From the NCBI RefSeq assembly GCF_004010195.1, contig NC_057729.1, positions 45,982,241 to 46,046,240 on the forward strand: DNA of 64,000 nucleotides. Direction: 5' to 3'. The translations under genes were made by a program, and so were the position numbers. The stretch comes from Chiloscyllium plagiosum. Lineage: Eukaryota. The notes below the pieces were generated by a model. The model saw only the letters and a list, made by a program, of their open reading frames with translations. It was not told the origin of the DNA and made no database searches. This document shows, one piece after another, positions 1-61,863 of this stretch. Numbering within the stretch: the stretch's first letter is position 1; the number at the start of each line of letters is the position of its first letter.

Positions 1-325
1 TGTGAAGTGATAGGATGGTGTTCCAGGACTTTGTCCTGGCATCAATGAGCGTAAAGAAGGAATTTCCTCAAAATGTACAGGCTCAAAATAGGCATAAATT
101 AATGCCCAAGACCATCGTCTCCTAACCTTAGCTCAAGTCAACATCTCTAGAAAGATAGCAAGATAGGTAGTATGTGTCTTCATATCAATTGGTCACACAT
201 TATTAACCCTATTCTTGCCATTCCACCCACAGACGTTTTGGGCTGAGATTGTCACCTAAGCAACTATTGGGGAAGCTGATCAAGTCATGGCTGTGGTTTA
301 CTAAGGTAACCATCAGGCAATTATG

Positions 326-758
326 TCATAGAGATGTACAGCACAGAAACAGACCCTTAGGTCCAACCCGCCCACGCCGACCAGATATCCCAACCCAATC
401 TAGTCCCACCTGCCAGCACCCAGCCCATATCCCTCCAAACCCTTCCTATTCATATACCCATCCAAATGCCTCTTAAATGTTGCAATTGTACCAGTCTCCA
501 CCACTTCCTCTGGCAGCTCATTCCATACATGTGCCACCCTCTGTGTGAAAAAGTTGCCCCTTAGGTCTCTTTTATATCTTTCCTCTCTCACCCTAAACCT
601 ATGCCCTCTAGATCTGGACTCCCCGACCCCAGGGAAAAGACTTTGCCTATTTACCTCATAATTTTGTAAACCCCTATAAGGTCACCCCTCAGCCTCCAAC
701 GCTCCAGGGAAAACAACCCCAGCCTGTTCAGCCTCTCGCTATAGCTTAAATCCTCCAA
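326..758 (-). mobile_element. Young CR1-clade LINE (HER1-like) 3' fragment
   Basis: Minus ORFs 'RDLRGNFFTQRVAHVWNELP' and 'ERLNRLGLFSLERWRLRGDLI' are the typical CR1 ORF2 C-terminus. Tail GTCATAGAG at 326; near-identical copies at 14935, 22177, 56053, 59910 and 61003. Confidence 0.92.
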
Positions 759-1022
759 ATAAGGAGAATCTGTGCCACTGGCAGGGAGGTTTGTAACCAG
801 AAGATATAAATTTGAGAAAATTGGTAAAAGAGCCAAAAGGCAAATGTAGAATGGTTTTGTTTTACCTAGCAAACTATTGTTGCCTAAAAGGGTAGGGGAA
901 GCAGATCTAATCATAACTTTGAAAAGAAATTGTCAGGCAATGGGAACTGGGGTGTGGAATTAATTGGATAGCACAAGCATAATGGACCAAAAGGCCTCAT
1001 TTTCTGTAGTATGACTATATGA
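759..1022 (+). mobile_element. Old degenerate CR1 3' fragment
   Basis: Decayed match to the CR1 C-terminus/3'UTR, ending 'atggaccaaaaggcctcattttctgtagtatgactatatgatt'. Confidence 0.6.
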
Positions 1023-2439
1023 TTGTCTGTGTTTGGTAGAACAAAACCATTTTGCACAAACCACATGCAAGAAATGCCAACAAGCTTGCATGTTTCACAA
1101 TTCAGTATTTACCCACCTGCAGGAAATGGAGTGAGGGATAGATACTGGATGATAATGCATACCTGTTACTAATGTGACTGCTATCACCAGGTCAGGTTTC
1201 ACAGAAGGCAGCAGAGAATACTTCTGGAGCATAGTCACTGCTGCAGAGTAGATGTTGCACTGAGGGTTAGTGCCTGATACATTTCACCCTTCGCTTCTGA
1301 AATTAAAAGTATTGCATATCTGGTGAACTTATGTACAATAGTTGATTTTATTGCAGTAATTTGAGAACAATAATCAGAGACTTACTCAGAAGAACAGTTC
1401 TGTCACAGGAATTGCCAAAGCATTCTTGTGTTACATACATATATATATATCTGCAGCTGGCCACCTTGCTAATACATTTCATTTTAAAGTATTTTGTTTT
1501 AGTACAAATTATTTTTGGCAAAGTGAGCTGACAGCTATTTGCCTGACGTTTAAGATATTATTTCAGCAGGAGTGAAACTGTGTGGTACAATATTAGTATC
1601 AAGCATATTCTGACATTCAGAAGAAATTATTTTTGGTGCTAATCTTCTTATCTGAAACATATTAATGTTTTTATTAAAACTGGTGACAGAGGGATTTAAT
1701 TTGAAGGAATTAACACATTTGTTCGTGAAATTACTCTGCACAGTTTCAGCACAACGGTTTTCTGAAGACAGAGTAACCCAAAGGGGGTCCCCACCATGCT
1801 ATAATAATTTCCTTATAGTTTGAAGTATCTGTTCCAGAGACAAGTAAAACTATTCATATCCTTGTTTTTTTTAACCAGTGCTGGTAAGTAAGTTTTTACA
1901 TTTGAGTGTAAATATGCACAAATAAGGTCAAACAAATCAATGCATGTGGCACAAAGAACAAAAACAGAATATGGGCTTATTTTTGCAACTGAGAAATAAT
2001 AATTTACACTATAACTGTGCCAACCACTTTGCAATATTCATTGTCGTTATAATTTAGCAGAATATTCATTTAATTTTTTTTGTGAAATGTTATTATTTCA
2101 GAACTTTTGCAATAATGGTCATGGTTAAATGATTGCCGATTTTAATGTTTATTATTTTTCCATACAGTATCATTTGCACTCTTGGTCAATTTTTCACATT
2201 AATAAGAATCACGCATGCACAAAAAAAAATCTCCTTAAGTTAGGGCTGAGAAATCATATTGTCAGTTTCCAACCAATTTTTAATTGGGAAAGATGTAGAA
2301 TAGGAAGGACTGCACATTTACTTGAATCTGATGCCATAATTGGAGTATGCAAGTAGAAATCAAGTAGATTCAGGGGCTGACATCCATGAGGTGTAAGCCA
2401 CTCATGCTGAATCTGTTAATTTAAAACACATTCTGGTCT

Positions 2440-2785
2440 CTATACAAAATAAGGTATAGGAGCACTGGAGAAGGTGTAATAATGATTTCACAGGATGGTG
2501 TGAGAACTGAGAAGGTGCAAATACCAGGAAAAACGGAAGAGGCTGAGCCTCTTTTCTGTTGAACAGAAATCTAATGGAGGTCTTTAAAACTATGAAAGAA
2601 TTTGAAGGATTAGACAAAACTAAATGCAATCATTTGAGGAAATCACTAAATTCCATGGAGGTGTGTGCAAGAAACTCCTTTATCTGGAGAGTGATGAAAA
2701 TATAAAACTTACTGCCGCATTGAGGTGAGTAACATAGATGCAGTTAAATGGAAGCTAGATATGTACCTGAAAGTGAAAGAAATGT
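2440..2785 (+). mobile_element. Old degenerate CR1 fragment
   Basis: Decayed 'gatttcacaggatggtg...ctaatggaggtctttaaaactatga' resembling the CR1 RFTRM/DLIEVFKIM region. Confidence 0.6.
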
Positions 2786-2787
2786 TG

Positions 2788-3385
2788 GAATTGTACCCAC
2801 CTCCACCCCTTCCTTTGGCATCTCATTCCATATGTGCACCACCCTCTGCATGAAAAAAGTTTCACCTTTTTAAATCTTTTCTCTCTCACCTTAGATCTAT
2901 GCCCTCCAGTTTTGGACTCCCCCATTCTAGGAAAAAGAACCTTGGCTATTCACCCTATCCATGCCCCTCATGACTTTAGAAACCTCTGTAAGGTTACCCC
3001 TCAGCCTCCAGGAGAAAAAAGCCTCAGCCTATTCAGCTTCTCCAAATAACTCAAACCAATCAGTCCCGGTAACATCCTTGTAAATCTTTTCTGCACCCTC
3101 TTATGTTTAACAACATCCTTTCCATAGCAGGACCACTGCAATTGTATGCAGTATTCTAAAAGTGGCCTCACCAATGTCCTGTACAACCACAACATGACAT
3201 CCCAACTCCTATACTTTGATATTCTGACCAAAGAAGGGAAACGTGCCCACTGACTTCTTCAACCGCCTATCTACCTGTGATTCCACTTTCAAGGAACTAT
3301 GCATCTGTACCCTGAGGTCTCTTTGTTCAGGAACACTCCCAGCAAGTCCTGCCCTGGTTTGCCTTACAAAATGCGACACCTCACA
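2788..3385 (-). mobile_element. CR1 (HER1-related) ORF2 fragment
   Basis: ORF 3001-3231 'LYRTLVRPLLEYCIQ...RVQKRFTRMLPGL'. Confidence 0.88.
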
Positions 3386-11855: not shown

Positions 11856-12065
11856 GAGAACCAGCATTCACTGTGTTTACTTCAGATTTCCAGCATCTAC
11901 AGTGTTTTGCCTTTAATGATGGGGGTGATTGCACTAATGCTTTCATGTAGCAGTTTTAGTAACCACAATGAGCCTTTCTCATCCTCGTGGGGTATTCTGT
12001 ATTATGTGCAAATGGCTGTGATACCCACTTATTTAATGAAAGATCAACAGAACACCGACTTTTAA

Positions 12066-12295
12066 TCAAGAACAGAAGTTGCTGGAAAAGCTCAGCTCGT
12101 CTGGCAGCATCTGTGAAGAGAAATCAAAGTTAGCGTTTTGGGTGCGGTAACCCTTCATCAGAACTTCCTCACTGGACCTGAAACATTAACTCTGATTTCT
12201 CTTCACAAATGCTGCCAGACCTGCTGAACTTTTCCAGCAACTTCTGTTTTCGTTTCTGATTTACAGCATCCACAGTTCTTCCGGTTTTGATTTTT
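12066..12295. mobile_element. Palindromic PLE-terminus mini-element, family B, degenerate hammerhead cores
   Basis: Left arm from 12071 (aacagaagttgctggaaaagctcagc) pairs with a right arm ending at 12248. The minus strand reads CTGATGA-A-GGGT...ACCC-AAAACG. Confidence 0.85.
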
Positions 12296-14868: not shown

Positions 14869-14934
14869 ATTGAGGAGGTCCCCCATACAAATTAGGAGTA
14901 AGCCATTTGGATATCCTAGCCACTGTATTAGATT

Positions 14935-15563
14935 CATAGATTCATAGAGATGTACAGCATGGAACAGATCCTTCGGTCCAACCGACCAGATATCCCAACC
15001 CAATCTAGTCCCACCTGCCAGCACCCAGCCCATATCCCTCCAAACCCTTCCTATTCATATTCCCATCCAAGTGCCTCTTAAATGTTGCAATTGTACCAGC
15101 CTCCACCACATCCTCTGGCAGCTCATTCCATACACGTACCACCCTCTGTGTGAAAAAGTTGCCCCTTAGGTCTCTTTTATATCTTTCCTCTCTCACCCTA
15201 AACCTATGCCCTCTAGTTCTGGACTCCCCGACCCCAGGGAAAAGACTTTGCTAATTTACCCTATCCATGCCCCTCATAATTTTGTAAACCTCTATAAGGT
15301 CACCCCTCAGCCTCTGACGCTCCAGGGAAAACAGCCCCAGCCTGTTCAGCCTCTCCCTATGGCTCAAATCATCCAACCCTGGCAACATCCTTGTAAATCT
15401 TTTCTGAACCCTTTCAAGTTTCACAACATCTTTCTGATAGGAAGGAGACCAGAATTGCATGCAATATTCCAACAGTGGCCGAACCAATGACCTGTACAGC
15501 CGTAGCATGACTTCCCAACTCCAGTACTCAGTACTCTGACCAATAAAACAAAGCATACCAAAC
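14935..15563 (-). mobile_element. Young CR1 (HER1-like) 3' fragment
   Basis: ORFs 15005-15196 and 15251-15556 (LVRPLLEYCMQFWSP, RGDLIEVYKIM); repeated TCATAGA tail. Confidence 0.93.
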
Positions 15564-18445: not shown

Positions 18446-18669
18446 GGAGAAAGTGAGGACTGCAGATGCTGGAGATAGAGTCAAGAGTGTGTTGCTGGAA
18501 AAGCACAGCAGGTCAAGCAGCATTCAAGGAGCAGGAGAATCGATGTTTTGGGCATAAGCCCTTCATCAGGAAAGACTCCTGATGAAGAGCTTATGCCTGA
18601 AACATCGATTCTCCTGCTCCTCGGATGCTGCCTGACCTGCTGTGCTTTTCCAGCAACACACTCTTGACT
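18446..18669. mobile_element. Palindromic PLE-terminus mini-element, family A, two divergent degenerate hammerheads
   Basis: Arms 18479-18571 and 18577-18669 are near-perfect reverse complements. Cores TCATCAG (18563-18569) and CTGATGA (18579-18585). Confidence 0.9.
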
Positions 18670-19569
18670 GGGAATGTTATCCTCCAGATTTGAATTTTTG
18701 ATGATAACCTTTTTAAAAAGTGCTTTTTGTAAACCATTTTTCTGTCTTTTTGATCTCTTCCTCTTAATCCCTTTTCCCTGTCATTATTTTGCTTTCTTTA
18801 AGTGATATGTGGCATTGAACCAAACTGACACATCCTGCTTTAAATGCTATATCCCTGAGAAAGGGTGCTTCTTCACCTTAATTGGTTAATAAGACCACTA
18901 CTCACCCTATTCACCAAAGTCTTCTCGCCCTTGTAGATGGTGTTCAATTAAAATAATTTTCTAATCATAATCCGTTCTTGTATAAAGACCCACAGAAATT
19001 TTGTGAAAGTGTAATGACAGAAAAATGTGGTTATTATTCAGTTGGGCAATATGATAATACTACAAGAAATGAGCACAAAACAGACAAGATCATGAAAGAA
19101 ATAGAAAATTGTGTTGCTGAAATCAGAACTACTCAATGAGTAACAATTTACCATTTTTATAATTAAAAATAGTGCAATCAATTGTCATTTTAAAACCTTC
19201 ACATACAACTTGGTATATTTTTTACCGTAGTTACATTTATATCTATGGGTAATCATATATCTAATTCAGCACTCTACTATGCCTGTGTGCTCAGTGACTT
19301 CATGACTACAATTGAATTAATAGACTGTGGTACACATTGGGCTTTGTTCTAGACTCAGTATGATCTGCAAGCATAGTAATGTTTTTCAATCTTTATTCTA
19401 TGACTTTGCTGTTTTCTTTATGTTGAATTTGTTCAGCCTTTCCGCTGATGGGGCAATTATTAATTGGTAGCTCTTTGTGTTAACACACCATTGACACAAT
19501 GGGATGGCTTTAAAATGGTCAGGTTACTTAGTTATCTGAAAACCGCTCCCCCCCGCCCCCCTCACCTCC

Positions 19570-19695
19570 ATTCCTGAAGAAAGGTTATACCTGCAGCGTT
19601 GACTTCTCCACCTCCTGATGCTGTCTGGCTTGCTGTGTTCTTCCAGCCTCCTGCTTGTCGACTTTGGATTTCAGCATCTGTAGTTTTTTTGTCCT
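19570..19695 (+). mobile_element. PLE terminus, family C, degenerate hammerhead
   Basis: CTGAAGA-A-AGGT-TAT-ACCT-GCAG-CGTT (GAAA mutated), followed by 'gatgctg...ttccagc...cagcatctg'. Confidence 0.75.
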
Positions 19696-20040
19696 TACTC
19701 TATTGAACTGGCAACTTGTGCCCTTTTTAAACTGCAGGTGCCACATTTCACTGATGTAACTGGGACCAGATCGCAATTTTAATTAATGCTTTGTCAAGGA
19801 AACTGGGCCATGTTCAGGCCAGGAGAAGGCTGGTTTCATCTGCCAGGAAGGAGATCCTGATAAATTTATTATTTGTTTTCTCTTTTGGCAGCAGAGGAAA
19901 GCGATGTGTTCTTCCAGACCTTATAATGTCCCTTACTCAGCATCTTCATCACACCCTCCTCACCCATCCCACACCACCTTTCACCTGTGACCCAGTGGAT
20001 GGTGGAAATCAGATCGGTGCGAGTTCAAGCCACGCGCCAA

Positions 20041-20288
20041 AGACAAAAACAGAAATTGCTGGAGAAATTCAGCAGGACTGGCAGCATGGGTGGAGAGAAA
20101 GCAGACTTAACCTTTTGGATCCAGTGACCCTTCTCCAGTACTCTTTAGAACGTCTGAAAAAAGATCTCTGGACCCGAAATGTTAACTCTGTTTTCTCTCC
20201 ACTGATACTGCCAGACCTGATGAGTTTCTCCAGCATTTTCAGAGCTTTGTTTCTGATTTCAAGCATCCACTGTTCTTTGTCTTATTTT
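20041..20288. mobile_element. Palindromic PLE-terminus mini-element, family B
   Basis: Inverted arms around ~20140-20152; right arm contains 'gacccgaaatgttaac'; homologous to 12066-12295. Confidence 0.82.
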
Positions 20289-21076: not shown

Positions 21077-22176
21077 TGATTCTGCCATCTACCTTATGTT
21101 GACAGATTGCCTTCAGGTCATGGAATTTTCCGATCCTTCCCAACAATTTCCAGCTTAAAATAGGAGAGAAGTCAGTTGTTCAGGTTTAAGTTCACCCCCT
21201 GAGGTAATTTAAGCCTCAATTTCAATTCCACAGCAGTGGTAAATTTTCATTGACCTTCATATACACCTCCCCAAAACCATTCTGGAATTAAAAAATCAGG
21301 GCTCGTGTGTTGGACTGGAAAGAAATTTTACTGACGTGTTCAGCAATAATCTGTATATCACTTGTTATTTTGAGTAAGTGTGCAATGGCGAGCAGTCAGA
21401 GGTAAAAATTAAGGAACTATTTGGTGTGAAATCATGGGAAGCATATTTATGTAAAGCATATTCTGAGTCACTAACAATGTAAAGCAGATGCTTTCGTTTG
21501 TATGATGCAAAATGCACTATTATCACCTTTATGAGTTTCTCTACGAAGACTGTTTATCAGCAGCTATGAAGATACAAATTCGACATGGCGTGGACAAAAA
21601 GAAGGCAAAGAAACATCAAATGAGTACTCCTACTATCAGCATTTCTCTGCTGTTGCAAGAAATTATGATTAAAAAGGAATGCATTCCTTGAAACAGATAG
21701 ATAAGCATATGAGTATTTTATACAGATTCTTTCCCCTGTGTAGCTTTGAAAACTCAGGCTAACTGCCCCATACAGATGAATTCCTTATTGCGAGTTCAGT
21801 TCCTTGAAGGCTTTGCTACATTTTTTGCTCTTCCACCTTCCAAGTTCTGATTTCCATAAAACATGCAGGAGAAGGTGACTTGCCTGACGCCAATTAATTT
21901 GTTACAAAATATGGCAGAGTGTGAGAAGTGACATTATGTTAATATCAGCTGTGTCCCTTTAAGTCATGCATGTCATATACTGCAATCAAATTTCAAACAT
22001 CACCCATTGCCTAAAGTAATTAAAATGCATATCAGTGAAGGATATTGAGCCCCATTGGTTAAGTAACACACAGCAGACTCATATTTAGAACAGAAAGATA
22101 TGTAGGCTAGCTTCATTTTGAGGGACATATTAAATCTTACATGTAATATAGGATGGAAAAGTAGGTATAGGTACTT

Positions 22177-22936
22177 ATAGAGTCATAGAGATGTACAGCA
22201 TGGAAACAGACCCTTCGGTTCAACCTGTCCATACCGACCAGATATCCCAACCCAATCTAGTCCCACCTGCCAGCACCCGGCCCATATCCCTCAAAACCCT
22301 TTCTATTCATATACCCATCCAAATGCCTCTTAAATGTTGCAATTGTACCAGCCTCCACCACATCCTCTGGCAGCTCATTCCATACANNNNNNNNNNNNNN
22401 NNNNNNNNNNNNNNNNNNNNNNNNNNNNNNNNNNNNNNNNNNNNNNNNNNNNNNNNNNNNNNNNNNNNNNNNNNNNNNNNNNNNNNNNNNNNNNNNNNNN
22501 NNNNNNNNNNNNNNNNNNNNNNNNNNNNNNNNNNNNNNNNNNNNNNNNNNNNNNNNNNNNNNNNNNNNNNNNNNNNNNNNNNNNNNNNNNNNNNNNNNNN
22601 NNNNNNNNNNNNNNNNNNNNNNNNNNNNNNNNNNNNNNNNNNNNNNNNNNNNNNNNNNNNNNNNNNNNNNNNNNNNNNNNNNNNNNNGCTAAGATTTGCT
22701 TTCCCAAAATGCAGCACCTCGCATTCATCTGAATTAGACTCCATCTGCCACTTCTCAGTCCATTGGCCCAACTGGTCCAGATCCTGTTATAATCTGAGGT
22801 AACCCTCTTTGCTGTCCATTACACCTCAAATTTTGGTGTCATCTGCAAACTTACTAACTGTACCTCTTATGCTTGCATCCAAATCATTTATGTAAATGAC
22901 AAAAAGTAGAGGACCCAGCAGCAATATTTGTGGCAA
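22177..22936 (-). mobile_element. Young CR1 (HER1-like) fragment spanning an assembly gap
   Basis: Same tail and sequence as 59910-61000; 'WTEKWQMESNSDECEVLHFG'. Confidence 0.9.
22387..22687. other. Assembly gap (N run)
   Basis: 301 consecutive N. Confidence 1.
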
Positions 22937-26690: not shown

Positions 26691-28208
26691 TACTGCGAGG
26701 TAACAGAAAACTGGAGGGTGATGAGAGTAGGTTTTGTTGTGAGCTTATACAAACAGAACTGGTTATTGTATCTGGGGGGAATTCCTCAGCACTGTTTTTA
26801 AATCATTTATCAAACCCTTTAAAATAAAGTGATTTTTGGCTTATTTTCCCAAGAATGATTCCCAAACAGAGGTAATGCACAAACATTGGAGAGGATGTTT
26901 CATTCTTTGTGGTGATGAGGGTTACAAGGAGAGTTGAAATCAGTAATGATGGTAGCAGACGGTGGTGTTAAAGAAAATAAGATGGAAGAAGAGATTTAAT
27001 TTTAGACTTCCGATTCTCATGTCGCTCTCTCCTTACATTGGAAGTACTTGAACGAAGGATTGACACAGAGAAGAGGGTTTCCTGATTCCAGTTAGTTATC
27101 TGTCCTGAATGCAGGAAATATATGGACAGGTGTAAATAGAAAGCATTAAAGATTTATCAGAGCATCTGCTGATGAGATTATAAAGTTGTTTATTATTAGA
27201 ATAGGTAATGCTTAAGCGAACCTGTTATCACCCATAAAACTCCATCAAGCTGATCTGGTCCCGGTACGTGTACATCTGGTGTTTTTCAGATGTCTTCATT
27301 TTTAAACTATCCATCATACTAGTAGCAGAGACCGCAAAACAGCCACACCGGCACTTTTCAGACTGCTCAGGTGTAGAGCTCGGCTTTGTTTCATGCAAGA
27401 GCGCAAAAGAGCTGAGAGCAGTCCTGCATCAACAGAAATGCATCCCGGGAGCAATCCCAATCTCTGACCTTCTTCATCAGGGTGGCAGTGCAGAATCAGC
27501 TCTCAGCCCCTTCCCTTCCCTGGTTATTAGAACTAGCTCTCAGCTGGCAGACAGCTGTTTTATAGCCCAATAGACTGTGGGCTTCAAACAGCCATTTTGA
27601 ACTTTCAGGGTTGAACTCGATAGATCTTTGTTAGATAGAAAATGAAAGGATGGAGAACAAAGATGGCTAAATTATATGTATAGATTAACAATGCAGTTGC
27701 CAATTTCAAAGTTTGTGGATGATATAAAATTTGGGAGCATTATAAACTGTGAGGAAGACAGTGTTGTGGAACTCCAAAGGATATATGCAAGATGGTGGAT
27801 TGGGGTAGATGAAGTTCAATGCAGAGAAGTTTAAGGCAACACATTGCGATGCAAAGAACATGGACAAATAGTATAAAATAGAGGTTATTATTCTAAACTA
27901 CGTGCTGTAGTAGAGAGATATAGGTGTATTCACACAAATCATCAAAGGTGACAAGACTGGTAGAGAGAGCAGTTAATGAATCAAACAGTGCTCCAGTTTT
28001 TATTCATGGAGGTGTAGAATGTAAGAGCAGGAAGTTATGCTGAATCTGTATAGGGCATCAGTTAGACCTCACCTGAAGTTTTGTCTATAGTTCTGTGTGT
28101 CACATTTTAGGAAGGATGTGATTGCATGGGAGAGAGTTAGGGTTAGGGTTACCTAAATAGACCCAGGGATGAGGACTTTCAGTAATGAAGAATGTTTTGA
28201 AAAGTTGA

Positions 28209-28425
28209 TATGATTTGGAGATGCTGGCGTTGGACTGGGGTGTACAAAGTTAAAACTCGCACAACACCAGGTTATAGTCCAACAGCTTTAATTGGAAGCA
28301 CACTAGCTTTCGTAACGATCGAGCCCTCCACAATCACCTGATGAAGGAGCATCGCTCCGAAAGCTAGTGTGCTTCCAATTAAACCTGTTGGACTATAACC
28401 TGGCGTTGTGTGATTTTTAACTTTG
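28209..28425. mobile_element. Palindromic PLE-terminus mini-element, family D, with 10-bp TSD
   Basis: GAAAAGTTGA at 28199-28208 and 28426-28435; inverted arms 28246-28312 and 28358-28424. Confidence 0.9.
28335..28369 (+). ncRNA. Minimal type I hammerhead ribozyme motif, intact core
   Basis: CAC-CTGATGA-A-GGAGC-ATC-GCTCC-GAAA-GC-TA|GTG: all core nucleotides present, 5-bp stem II, palindromic AGCT stem III, stem I CAC/GTG. Predicted cut after 28366; activity untested. Confidence 0.78.
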
Positions 28426-29304
28426 GAAAAGTTGAGACTGTTTCCTTTGCAGAGGCGAAAACCAAGAGGAGATTTGACTGAAGTTTTCAAAGTTATGAGT
28501 ATAGACAGAATTAGTAGAGAAAAGATGATCATGCCCATAAAAGGATCAAGATCCAGAGGGCACAGTTTTAAAATGTTTGTTTTAAAAAGAAGCAAACGTG
28601 AGATGGTAAAAAAAAAATCCTTAGATAGTGAGTAGCTAAGGTCTGGAATGCACTAATGTGTGTGTGGTGTAGCAGGTTCAATTGAGCCATGTTAAAGGGA
28701 ATTGGATGATTAGTTAAATATGAACAATGTGCAGGGTTACAGGGAAAACAAAACAGGAGTTTGGCCCAGAGAGCGAGTGCAGAGAGGATGGGCCAAATGG
28801 CCTCCTCCTGCATGGCAACAATCATATGATTCTGTGAACAAAGGAGCATTCTCAAAGGGTGAATGACCTATTTACCAACAACAAATGCAAATACACAACA
28901 TCAATAAAAGCCCAGACAAATATACTTCTTGTGTTCTACATTTTACAAGAAACATCCAGATTATTTCTTCCTATCTTACAACCACAGATCCATTTCCATC
29001 TCTTTCACCATCAACACCTGTGGCAGGGATGATTGCCACTGGTGAGAGGTTGAATTACACAAGCCTTATTAACACTGTCTCTATAACAATCAAGGCATGT
29101 TGAAGACATGGTTCAGATGTCTGAACAAATCCAGGGGGGTCTTCAGAATCCAACAGCAATGTTCTGTGCAGCACAGTGTGTGACAGAGAGGACTGAGATC
29201 ACAGAAGGAGGAAGGTGGTGATTGGTCTTTGAAGAAGGAGTTCTGACAGGAACAGGAGGAGGTTGCAAAGTTTGATAATTGACTTCAAAGGTTGGGCTCA
29301 TTCA

Positions 29305-29717: not shown

Positions 29718-29813
29718 TCTCCTGCTCCTCGGATGCTGCCTGGCCTGCTGTGCTTTTCCAGCAATGCACTTTTCTACTCTGATCTCCAGCATCTACAGTC
29801 CTCACCTTTTCCT
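29718..29813 (+). mobile_element. PLE-terminus fragment, family A, starting just after the predicted ribozyme cut site
   Basis: 'tctcctgctcctcggatgctgcc...ctccagcatctacagtcctcacc'; CCATCTCC on both flanks (29707, 29818). Confidence 0.8.
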
Positions 29814-42448: not shown

Positions 42449-42625
42449 AAAGTCAGAAGTCACACGACACCAGGTTTTAGTCCAATAGGTTTATGTGAAA
42501 TCATATGTTGAAGGGGCTGCGCTCCAAAAGCCTGTGATTTCAAGTAAACCTATTGGACTATAACCTGGTGTAATGTGACGTCTGACTTTGTCCACCCCAG
42601 TCCAACACCAGCACCTCCACATCAT
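42449..42625. mobile_element. Palindromic PLE-terminus mini-element, family D variant
   Basis: Arms 'aaagtcagaagtcacacgacaccagg' and 'cctggtgtaatgtgacgtctgacttt'; degenerate core TGTTGA-A-GGGGC-TGC-GCTCC-AAAAGC; CATGAATGA at 42434 and 42623. Confidence 0.82.
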
Positions 42626-56035: not shown

Positions 56036-56052
56036 TATAACTAGATTGAAGT

Positions 56053-56688
56053 AGAGTCATAGAGATGTACAGCACAGAAACAGACCCTTCGGTCCAACCA
56101 GTCCATGCTGACCAGATATCTCAACTCAATCTAGTCCCATCTGTCAGCACCCGGCCCATATCCCTCAAAACCCTTTCTATTCATATATACGTCCAAATGC
56201 CTTTTAGATGTTGCAATTGTACCAGTCTCCATCACTTCCTCTGGCAGCTCATTCCATACACATACTACTCTCTGCATGAAAAAGTTGTCCCTTAGGTCTC
56301 TTTTGTATCTTTCCCCTCTCACCCTAAACCTATGCCCTCTAGATCTGGACTCACCCCACCCTAGGGAAAAGACTTTGTCTACTTATCCTATCCATGTCCC
56401 TCATAGTTTTGTAAACCTCTATAAGATCACCCCTCAGCCTCCGACGCTCCAGGGAAAACAGACGCATCCTGTTCAGCCTCTCCCTATAGCTCAAATCCTC
56501 CAATCCTAGCAACATCCTTGTAAATCTTTTTTGAACTCCTTCAAGTTTCACAACATCTTTTTGATAGGAAGGAGACCAGAATTGCACACAATATTCCAAC
56601 AGTGGCCTAATCAATATCCTGTACAGCCGCAACATGACCTCCCAACTCCTGTACTCAATACTCTGATTGATAAAGGAAAGCATACCAA
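56053..56688 (-). mobile_element. Young CR1 (HER1-like) 3' fragment
   Basis: ORFs 56131-56322 and 56351-56683. Confidence 0.93.
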
Positions 56689-58455: not shown

Positions 58456-60072
58456 CCAAGGTTGGCTTGCTGACCAGAGATTTGTTTGGAATAATGCCAA
58501 CAGAACAGGTATGGACCTGTTTCAGGCTGAGGTAGAAATGAGACCACTTGTCCTTCACCTGGGAAAGACAATGGCAAACCACCACTAAACAAGAAAATGG
58601 TTTCGAACGAAACATCACCAGACAACGAACCAAAAGCATGTTTCAAAGCAATGCATGTGATATCAAGGTTCAAAGTAAATATTTTCTGTAAGTTGAGACC
58701 AACCAATAGTTCATTTTATAAACTCTAACATCTTCAGCTTGGAAGCAGCAGTTCTGTGCACCATTAATTAAACTGGTTGTTATTGAATATTATTTAAATG
58801 GACAATACCTTCTTGTTAATGTATCTGATAATGGTGTTGAAGATATTTTGTTGTCGTCACAATACCTCACTCATTTGGATACCACATTGTTATTAGTCAT
58901 TAAAAACAGCTAAGGTCTAACCTTTGTGGTCAGTGCATCTTAACTCTAATGCAGCATATCGCAGAATAGTGGGGTTTGGGTTTGTGTACTGTTACATGGA
59001 CATGGAAATGGAAAAGGTGCCAAGCAATAGTTCTCAGAGAAAACAGTGTAGGTTGCAATACCTGGTGAGTTAGTTCTCACCATTACAGGGCCATTCTATC
59101 TGCCCATTTCTCAGCATAGGGTATCACAACTGGAGAAGAACAAAAGGAAGCAGTGTGGCTAGAAGTGATGACGATAGTAGGATTTCCTGTGAAAGTTCTG
59201 TAGCCTCTGTTCAGATTGTCATACAATGCTGTGTAGAATATTTGGAATGTGGCCAAGTAACAAACACCATGCACTTCTGATTATTACAAAACAACTAGAG
59301 GTTCACAGAAAGCAGCAAAACATTCATCTACAATTTATAGTCACATAAATATACAACAATAGGAAATCACCAGGCATAAAAAGGGATTAAACCAGATACA
59401 CCTAAAACCAGTTCATTTGAAAAGACAAGTTGCGAATTCCAAATGATACTTGTGATTTTAATTTTCCCCCTTGCTTGTAAACCGATCACTGTTCATGGCC
59501 TTCTGCAGTGTCTCAGTGAAGCTCAGTATAATGTTGCAAGTATTTAGTTCATGGTTCAACCTTTTTGGCAGATAACTTTTGGTTTTGGGAATTAAATCTT
59601 AACTGTAGAGATGGGATGGATACAATTAAAGCAGGCTTGGAGACTATTATGCTTAGACATTTGGGCTGTGTTACCTTAAGAAGTTAACTCTGGGATTATT
59701 AGGAAGCTGAAAGCAAGCAATTCAGAAGGTGGCCATTTTTAAAAATAAATACAGAATAGAAGAGTCAGAGCTACAACCTCAGCAGGTTGACTTACTTCGC
59801 TGAAGCACTGTAGATGTGATATTTGCAGTGGTTGCAATCCAGAGAGCTTGGGCAGTCCAAAGAGGTAATTTTCACAGAATCGTACAGTACAGAAATGGCC
59901 TGTATTGATTAGAGTCATAGAGTCATAGAGATGTACAGCATAGAAACAGACCCTTTGGTCCAACCTGTCCATGCCTACCAGATATCCCAACCCAATCTAG
60001 TACCACCTGCCAACACCCGGCCCATATCCCTCCAAACCCTTCCTATTCATATACCCATCCAAATGCCTTTAA

Positions 60073-60257
60073 GGGTGCTCCAGTTTCCTCCCATAATCCA
60101 AAGATGTGCACGTTAGGTGAGTTGGCCATGCTAAATTGCCCCATAGCGTTAGGTCAATTAGTCAGAGAGAAATGGGTCTGGGTGGGTTACTCTTCAGAGG
60201 GTCGGTGTGGACTGGTTGGGTCGAAGGGCCTGTTTCCACACTGTAGGGAATCTAATC
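60073..60257 (+). mobile_element. 5'-truncated HE1-type SINE inserted in HER1
   Basis: Host 'tgcctttaa|...|taaatgttgc' is split by V-domain plus tail; TAA duplicated. Confidence 0.88.
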
Positions 60258-61002
60258 TAAATGTTGCAATTGTACCAGCCTCCACCACTTCCTCTGGCAG
60301 CTCATTCCATACACGTACCACCCGCTGTGTGAAAAAGTTGCCCCTGAGGTCTCTTTTATATTTTTTCCCTCTCACCCTAAACCTATGCCCCCTAGTTCTG
60401 GACTCCCCCACCTCAGGGAAAAACTTTGTCTATTTATCCTATCCATGCCCCTCATAATTTTAAAAACCTCTATAAGGTCACTCCTCAGCCTCCGACACTC
60501 CAGGGAAAACAGCCCCAGCCTGTTCCGCCTCTTCCTATAGCTCAAATCCTCCAACCCTGGTAACATCCTTGTAAATCTTTTCTGAACCCTTTCAAGTTTC
60601 ACAACATCTTTCCAATAGGAAGGAGACCAGAATTGCACGCAATATTCCAACAGTGGCCTAACCAATGTCCTGTACAGCCACAATATGACCTCCCAACTCC
60701 TGTACTTAATACTCTGACAATAAAGGAAAATATACCAAATGCCTCCTTCAATATCCTACCTACCTGCGACTCTGCTTTTAAAGAGCTATGAATGTGCACT
60801 CCAAGGTCTCTTTGTTCAGCAACACTCCCTATGACCTTACAATTAAGTGTATAAGAACTGCTAAGATTTGCTTTCTCAAAATGCAGCACCTCGCATTTAT
60901 CTGAATTAAACGCCATCTGCCACTTCTCAGCCCATCTGATCAAGATTCTGTTGTAATCTGAGGTAACCTTCTTCGCTTGTCCACTATGCCTCCAATTTTG
61001 GT

Positions 61003-61381
61003 GTCATAGAGTCATTGAGTCATAGAGGTGTACAGAATGGAAACAGACCCTTCGGTCCAACCCGTCCATGCCGACCAGATATCCCAACCCAATCTAGTCC
61101 CACCTGCCAGCACCCGACCCATATCCCTCCAAACCCTTCCTATTCATATACCCATCCAAATGCCTCTTAAATGTTGCAATTGTACCAGCCTCCACCACTT
61201 CCTCTGGCAGCTCATTCCATACACGTACCACCCTCTGCATGAAAAAGTTGCCCCTTATGTCTCTTTTACATCTTTCCCCTCTCACCCTAAACCTATGCCC
61301 TCTAGTTCTGGACTCCCCGACCCCAGGAAAAAAACTTTGCCTATTTATCCTATCCATGCCCCTCATAATTTTGTAAACCTC
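61003..61381 (-). mobile_element. HER1-like 3' fragment inserted into its own family
   Basis: A new tail starts at the host GTCAT; host resumes 'cttactaact...atgctcgcatcc' at ~61381 (compare the uninterrupted copy at 22831-22880). Confidence 0.88.
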
Positions 61382-61863
61382 TTACTAACTAATGCTCGCA
61401 TCCAAATCATTTATATAAATGACAAAAAGTAGAGGACCCAGCACCGGCACTCCACTGGTCACCAGCCACCAGTCTGAAAAACAATCCTCCATCACCACCC
61501 TCTGTCTTCTACCTTTGAGCCAGTTCTGTATCCACATGGCTAGTTCTCCCTGCATTCAGTGAGATCTAACCTTGCTAACCAGTGTCCCATGGGGAACCTT
61601 GTCAAACGCCTTACTGAAGTCCATATAGATCACATCTACCACTCTGCCCTCATCAATCCTCTTTGTTACTTCTTCAAAAAACTCAATCAAGCTTGTGAGA
61701 CATGATTTCCCACACACAAAGTCATGTTGACTATCCCTAATCAGTCCTTGCCTTTCCAAATACATGTACATCCTATCCCTCAGGATTCCCTCCAACAACT
61801 TGCCCACCACCGACGTCAGGCTCACTGATCTATAGTTACCTGGCTTGTCCTTACCATGTTTCT

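Follow-up and report, generated by a model that had tools for sequence, protein, structure and literature searches.

Penelope-like retroelements (PLEs) probably rely on a conserved RNA helix that positions both starts of their reverse transcriptase (RT), a reading to which a probability of roughly 0.6 is assigned here. The helix joins two short complementary segments downstream of the hammerhead core in the terminal repeats (pLTRs) of these elements. Its 3′ strand sits in the optional tail of 30-40 nt, with 18-22 nt between it and the long end; the short end falls within the enclosed loop, in most cases 6-12 nt ahead of that strand. That the pairing itself is real and selected is likely.

Penelope-like ends in the window and in the genome

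The window, the whole 64-kb stretch of DNA analysed, contains repeats of 100-230 bp in inverted pairs that carry a minimal hammerhead core along with the complementary motifs (Table 1). These repeats are the pLTRs of PLEs. For the focal copy (28210-28425), the minus strand is the RNA sense of the helix-bearing long arm. An Rfam search of the window returned no match at gathering score. All ten motifs listed by the sequence-only reading lie where it had placed them, and its enclosed loops of 39 nt in family D and 48-49 nt in families A-C are confirmed. Dispersed repeats of another type, mutually 87-95% identical, occupy window positions 325-771, 14927-15562, 22174-22386, 56042-56688 and 59908-61443, and are probably LINE/SINE fragments.

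Table 1. PLE insertions and their features, in positions of the window
Feature	Position	Strand	Remarks
Family D two-armed PLE insertion (focal)	28210..28425		long arm - (28210-28318), short arm + (28328-28425)
Helix 5′ strand, focal D long arm	28276..28283	-	RNA sense GTTGGACT
Helix 3′ strand, focal D tail	28229..28236	-	RNA sense AGTCCAAC; 19 nt before long end
Optional tail, about 35 nt, focal D	28210..28244	-	long arm only
Minimal hammerhead core CTGATGA-stem II-GAAA, focal D short arm	28338..28362	+	without Rfam match at gathering score
Left target-site duplication GAAAAGTTGA, focal D	28199..28208	+	read directly
Right target-site duplication GAAAAGTTGA, focal D	28426..28435	+	read directly; 10 bp
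Second, older D insertion	42449..42625		short arm -, long arm +; helix strands 42553-42559/42599-42605
Family A long-end copy, truncated past hammerhead	29718..29812	+	helix strands 29732-29738/29787-29793
Family A two-armed insertion	18446..18669		long arm -, short arm +
Family B two-armed insertion	12064..12288		short arm -, long arm +; helix strands 12209-12214/12264-12269
Second family B two-armed insertion	20043..20278		short arm -, long arm +
Family C long-end copy	19564..19697	+	helix strands 19617-19623/19672-19678; right end approximate (T-run)

EN+ PLEs are characterized by an optional tail of 30-40 bp and an inverted, 5′-truncated copy (PMC3846280; PMC8557442). A search of the genome to which the window belongs (3.56 Gb) gave 1841-3327 candidates per family, with 40 scored for each. 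At 30 loci per family, copies of D, A and B have a pair of arms placed head to head, of which one stops 33-40 nt earlier than its partner, with short direct repeats outside; C copies are single more often. The hammerhead core with its stem II is present in all six families (A1, A2, B, C, D and E), and the 3′ ends are two-peaked in all six, as expected for optional-tail EN+ PLEs.

Copies of A2, C and E extend upstream into broken RT/GIY-YIG frames, which marks them as ends of endonuclease-bearing PLEs. For instance, one A2 copy (L552) matches RVT_1 above the cut-off and contains DKG and YIDD motifs, and GIY-YIG matches below the cut-off lie beside C (E 0.003) and beside E (E 0.0032). A GIY-YIG search of another family E stretch found no match, and a GIY-YIG family search of the genome produced a single weak match that was set aside. 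By eye, a CxxC linker adjoins A/C, a feature assigned to Neptune/Nematis (PMC8557442), and E has none, in that resembling Penelope/Poseidon (PMC8557442); on this inspection by eye, A/C may belong to Neptune-like clades and E to Poseidon-like ones. The RT-bearing stretches compared (12 of 20 fetched) are all 5′-truncated or interrupted. Upstream of D and B copies no ORF was found; D copies share up to about 530 nt of upstream sequence and B copies little. Two D copies (L133 and L142) have about 500 nt of upstream sequence in common, which reaches a (CA)n tract and has no visible open frame. Common downstream sequence, sought as a sign of a full-length element with RNA past the long end, is present in two of 64 copies in D, none of 41 in E, two of 142 in A1, two of 131 in A2 and none of 49 in B; the few copies that share it look like duplicated loci.

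The earlier count of four families with different sequences overstates their independence. A, B and C are homologous: downstream of the hammerhead their identity is 65-68%, and none of 300 shuffles attains the score of A1-B or that of A1-C. GATGCTG/CAGCATC is common to A1, A2, B and C. D alone is unrelated and aligns to A/B/C no better than shuffles do, with 62 of 300 reaching the A1-D score and 131 of 300 the B-D score. The window thus contributes two independent cases, not four. A search for further families in all fetched DNA, including 1.0 Mb of unselected sequence, uncovered one more, E, which is alignable to neither A/B/C nor D.

The complementary pair: position, chance level and conservation

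Family majorities form a Watson-Crick helix of 9 bp in D and of 7 bp in A1, A2, B and C; the window copy of B has 6 bp because one base is mutated. Family E carries a third unrelated pair, AGCTCAG/CTGAGCT (7 bp, loop 28 nt), whose 3′ strand ends 22 nt before the long end. The pair is therefore found in three mutually unalignable lineages of this genome: A/B/C, D and E. BLAST short ends of A1 cluster additionally at 15-19 nt before the 3′ strand, probably as a result of subfamily divergence.

Chance complementarity was gauged with dinucleotide shuffles in which a helix of equal length could lie at any place with a loop of at least 25 nt. Such a helix appears in 45 (D), 139 (E), 161 (C), 334 (B), 366 (A1) and 506 (A2) of 5000 shuffles, so each family alone is only moderately unlikely. 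The counts fall to 12 (D), 24 (E), 30 (C), 59 (B), 76 (A1) and 85 (A2) of 5000 when the 3′ strand must lie 16-23 nt from the end, a range picked after families A-E had been seen, which leaves the set without position as the only fair test. Family C was trimmed short at its T-run in this test, the true distance of its 3′ strand being 18-19 nt. By stacking energy, the value observed for E is reached by 10 of 500 shuffles.

With the hammerhead included, the predicted pair probability is 0.99 in A1, 0.79 in A2, 0.16 in B, 0.95 in C, 0.77 in D and 0.81 in E; without it, D drops to 0.34 and E to 0.12. The D majority also contains a rival register, GGTGTTG/CAACACC (28210-28283, minus strand; 7 Watson-Crick pairs, 9 with G-U), which overlaps the 3′ strand of the main helix and could represent an alternative fold. 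Of the window copies, two were folded; the helix is predicted in both, and their overall folding z-scores are modest (-1.99 and -0.52). An inner hairpin within the loop, TGCTG..CAGCA, is conserved in A1, A2, B and C (4 bp in C; 29744-29763 is an example), and at a comparable position in the loop, D and, by eye, PAc (described below) contain an inner stem of 5 bp.

In the alignment of A1, A2, B and C, all 14 helix columns are invariant, compared with 33 of 93 other downstream columns. Divergence of copies from their majority is lower in the helix (0.013-0.096) than nearby (0.061-0.141) in all six families, and the tail bases adjoining the helix are conserved as well. Covariation among 437 long copies amounts to just five double changes to Watson-Crick pairs, each a single case; such scarcity is expected among dead copies, yet offers no proof of a helix. 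Subfamilies with altered helices were sought and none was found. Several extensions of the helix are, by eye, G-U pairs in the hammerhead-sense strand (A1, A2, the metagenome family M4 and one copy of metagenome family M6), with B as an opposite case.

Another example of the pair comes from PAc, the Poseidon element of Anolis carolinensis, which works in vitro (Frangieh et al., PMC11167929). In the PAc template, CAUGGCC at +50-56 and GGCCAUG at +94-100, counted by eye, enclose a loop of 37 nt and represent, by the same inspection, a fourth unrelated sequence beside A/B/C, D and E. The two genomic ends of PAc correspond to two internal RT start sites bounding the tail; nicked target DNA serves as primer for its cDNA, which starts at internal positions of a longer RNA (PMC11167929). 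The main start, +111-118, was placed in a local AC-rich stem loop (PMC11167929) and lies 11-18 nt past the pair identified by eye. One tail length upstream, the other start would lie within the enclosed loop. The pair is included in the shortest RNA with activity (+20 to +172), from which the hammerhead core is absent and which requires some 50 nt past the distal start (PMC11167929). Both target strands are nicked and extended, no difference in start site between them was seen in vitro, and the protein is a predicted dimer (PMC11167929). Identity of the helix with the AC-rich stem loop was considered and rejected: the former occupies +50-56/+94-100 (by eye) and the latter +111-118, and since the start lies 11-18 nt downstream of the helix, the stem loop is a neighbouring, different element. 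The proposal that a conserved second RNA element lies downstream of the hammerhead is supported by the unrelated sequences in E and PAc (the latter by eye) and the 14 invariant columns.

Metagenome contigs were examined with a pattern scan, which gave 120 loci in 15 clusters. Eight of these families have at least two long copies, so that the end can be read, and one copy of each was tested. The longest helix with G-U pairs allowed, 12-23 nt from the end, sums to 47 versus 47.75 and is reached by 239 of 400 shuffles. The statistics of Watson-Crick length and stacking energy were a second try, made after this one: the former is reached by 26 of 500 shuffles with no position prior and by 140 of 500 at 12-23 nt, and the summed stacking energy by 2 of 500 and 1 of 500, respectively. 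Four of the eight families share a GGTTG/CAACC core and so are not independent. In 11 aligned sequences, with M2 left out, the two strands of this core are the only long invariant blocks; its five pairs show no double change there, an invariance that is uninformative either way. The next outer pair is T-A, A-T, T-G or T-T depending on the family, one double change by eye.

In M1 and M12, 19 nt separate the core from the long end. M2 and M3 have pairs of 5-6 bp at 19-20 nt from that end, M0 has just 4 Watson-Crick pairs at 19 nt, and M6 has an 8-bp pair at 26-28 nt. Without a position prior, the energy-best helix ends 17-22 nt from the end in three of six lineages outside the discovery set (E, the GGTTG group and M3; binomial P 0.044), the others being M0, M2 and M6. 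A scan of viral contigs with the hammerhead pattern listed 121 stretches. On one metagenome contig (L356), a tandem array of units of about 63 nt, each with a hammerhead core, is retrozyme-like.

Long and short ends across insertions

The use of the two ends was counted in an unselected sample of 1,064,000 bases of the same genome (fetched blocks plus the window), which holds 370 pLTR matches. Among 78 close inverted pairs, 69 combine a long and a short end, one is short+short, none is long+long and eight are unclassifiable, whereas unpaired matches divide into 97 long, 88 short and 17 unclassifiable. Repeats of 10-18 bp resembling target-site duplications (TSDs) surround 46 of the 69 long+short pairs and none of 69 controls. 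The 90 distant inverted pairs comprise 54 long+short, 15 long+long, 7 short+short and 14 unclassifiable cases; the 21 with a TSD are all long+short, compared with 0 of 22 same-end pairs (Fisher P 0.0004). By this long+short rule an insertion makes use of both starts, but a causal part of the helix does not follow from it. Solo copies seldom have a short hidden partner arm beside them: one was scored for 7 of the 97 long solos and for 8 of the 88 short ones.

In long family E insertions that contain endonuclease sequence (L526, L534, L535, L539 and L542), a long end is again combined with a short one, at a distance of about 0.7-1.4 kb. Many arms in the unselected sample start at a point 5-13 positions inside the models, immediately ahead of the hammerhead core and not at the cleavage site, which is in line with an uncleaved template.

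Proposed role, rival explanations and known systems

The mechanism proposed here starts from a helix that would form in the hammerhead-sense RNA. The RT-endonuclease protein, a predicted dimer, would bind this long-range helix of 7-9 bp as an anchor; recognition of the helix by the RT is plausible. Of the two nicked strands, one would then prime within the loop and its counterpart some 19 nt beyond the helix, in a programmed form of twin priming, and head-to-head joining of the two cDNAs would give a palindrome in which a single arm has the tail. Such a helix is probably necessary, yet not sufficient, because PAc also requires RNA out to +172. Weighing against this reading are the near absence of covariation where sequences align, the mixed metagenome statistics, the distance of 26-28 nt in M6, the low pair probability in B and, for PAc in vitro, start sites that did not differ between the strands (PMC11167929). 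As a wider and more tentative proposal, PLE clades may share a sequence-independent anchor helix, on which a dimeric, telomerase-related RT has two fixed starts, one per nicked strand. If true, this anchor would account for the PLE tail and for insertions with one long and one short inverted arm, and would constitute a retrotransposon counterpart of the telomerase boundary helix.

Several other explanations of the pair have to be weighed. It is unlikely that the helix is real and selected for another job, such as hammerhead folding, RNA stability or translation, with the starts set by sequence or by the small distal hairpin and the RNA beyond it. The position of the main PAc start inside the AC-rich stem loop at +111-118 and the requirement for RNA to +172 would suit such an arrangement (PMC11167929), as would the altered pairing predicted in D and E when the hammerhead is included and the suggestion by Frangieh et al. 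that protein binding near the distal start aids hammerhead folding (PMC11167929). However, spacing to both ends is kept across three unrelated lineages, and PAc insertion is unaffected by hammerhead mutants (PMC11167929). A rather improbable alternative is that the strands are conserved because the protein recognizes them as sequence motifs, whether in RNA or in DNA, for instance as an inverted pair of sites for a dimer, with pairing not required. Strands that are invariant and do not covary in the alignable sets are compatible with this, as are the conserved adjoining tail bases and the report that the D. virilis tail is needed for endonuclease recognition of DNA (cited in PMC11167929). Complementarity at similar spacing in at least four unrelated sequences (PAc by eye) argues for pairing instead, and so do the G-U extensions in the hammerhead-sense strand seen by eye, B being the one opposite case.

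Chance, or a by-product of insertion, is a poor explanation, even though short complementary stretches occur often and small inverted pieces can be copied during palindromic insertion. The helix length is reached in 1-10% of single-family shuffles, the length statistics fail in the metagenome set, and the 16-23 nt range was chosen with families A-E in sight; yet the pair recurs in E and PAc, outside the original finding, its strands are invariant across families only 65-68% identical, and the energy-best helix falls 17-22 nt from the end in half of the six non-discovery lineages (P 0.044). Fold-back of the tail to prime its own reverse transcription, which the sequence-only reading had offered, is very improbable. 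Self-priming has been proposed for palindromic junctions of rotifer PLEs (PMC3846280), but the 3′ strand is not at the 3′ terminus. In the families of the window, 18-20 nt lie between it and the long end (19 nt in the focal copy), and over the full range of 18-22 nt no paired 3′-OH would be available. The TSDs around 46 of 69 pairs, with none around the 69 controls, and the priming of PAc on nicked target DNA from a longer RNA (PMC11167929) likewise oppose it.

A helix that positions both starts can be set beside what is known of PLE ends. The hammerhead pLTRs, head-to-head arms, one-end tail and TSDs of published EN+ PLEs are the same as those described here (PMC3846280; PMC8557442), and the PLE ends, the tail and the two start sites are already published (PMC3846280; PMC8557442; PMC11167929). 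The text found in the first two of these sources ascribes the tail to endonuclease resolution and mentions no RNA pairing of the tail, whereas a near-strict long+short rule has been counted here. PAc has the same two starts bounding its tail and, by eye, a 7-bp pair of the same layout; the text found on it names no long-range helix or its conservation, and the letters of Fig. S1B span +30 to +125 (PMC11167929). Minimal hammerheads of metazoan PLEs have the same core, upstream of the helix, in an account that deals with the ribozyme and covers nothing downstream in the part consulted (PMC4209133). The sequence-only reading knew of no description of the element, which stands in part: no text found on PLE ends names the helix or its conservation, but the tail and start sites have been described, and Fig. 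S1B, which spans the region, may draw it (PMC11167929).

Similar devices are found outside PLEs. The template boundary element of telomerase RNA, a long-range enclosing helix in vertebrates, resembles the PLE helix in fixing a limit on the template (PMC4993307). It sets the stop of synthesis, whereas the PLE helix would set starts; PLE copies run through the helix to the hammerhead, so that it is not a stop. In L1 twin priming, priming on the RNA takes place from both sides of the break and produces an inversion, as proposed here (Ostertag and Kazazian, via PMC2246262); in PLEs, unlike L1, the starts are fixed and the two arms copy the same segment. How the PLE RT chooses internal starts, and why the tail is one-sided and the arms inverted, are open questions on which the helix bears (PMC8557442; PMC11167929). 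It offers a defined candidate for a cis element, with coordinates (by eye, PAc +50-56 and +94-100) in the only system that works in vitro. PLE RTs are the sister group of telomerase, and a positional helix would therefore bear on the origin of RT-RNA anchoring.

Four sequencing runs were uninformative about RNA structure and start sites. In a poly(A) single-cell RNA run (X19), 438 and 536 family-D-like reads have poly(A) loose ends at window positions 28395-28398, in the short arm. These reads, from one sample and many loci, are probably host transcripts that use D copies as poly(A) sites; their poly(A) ends lie about 15-20 nt past the AATTAAA/AATAAA of the pLTR, just beyond the 5′ strand of the helix.
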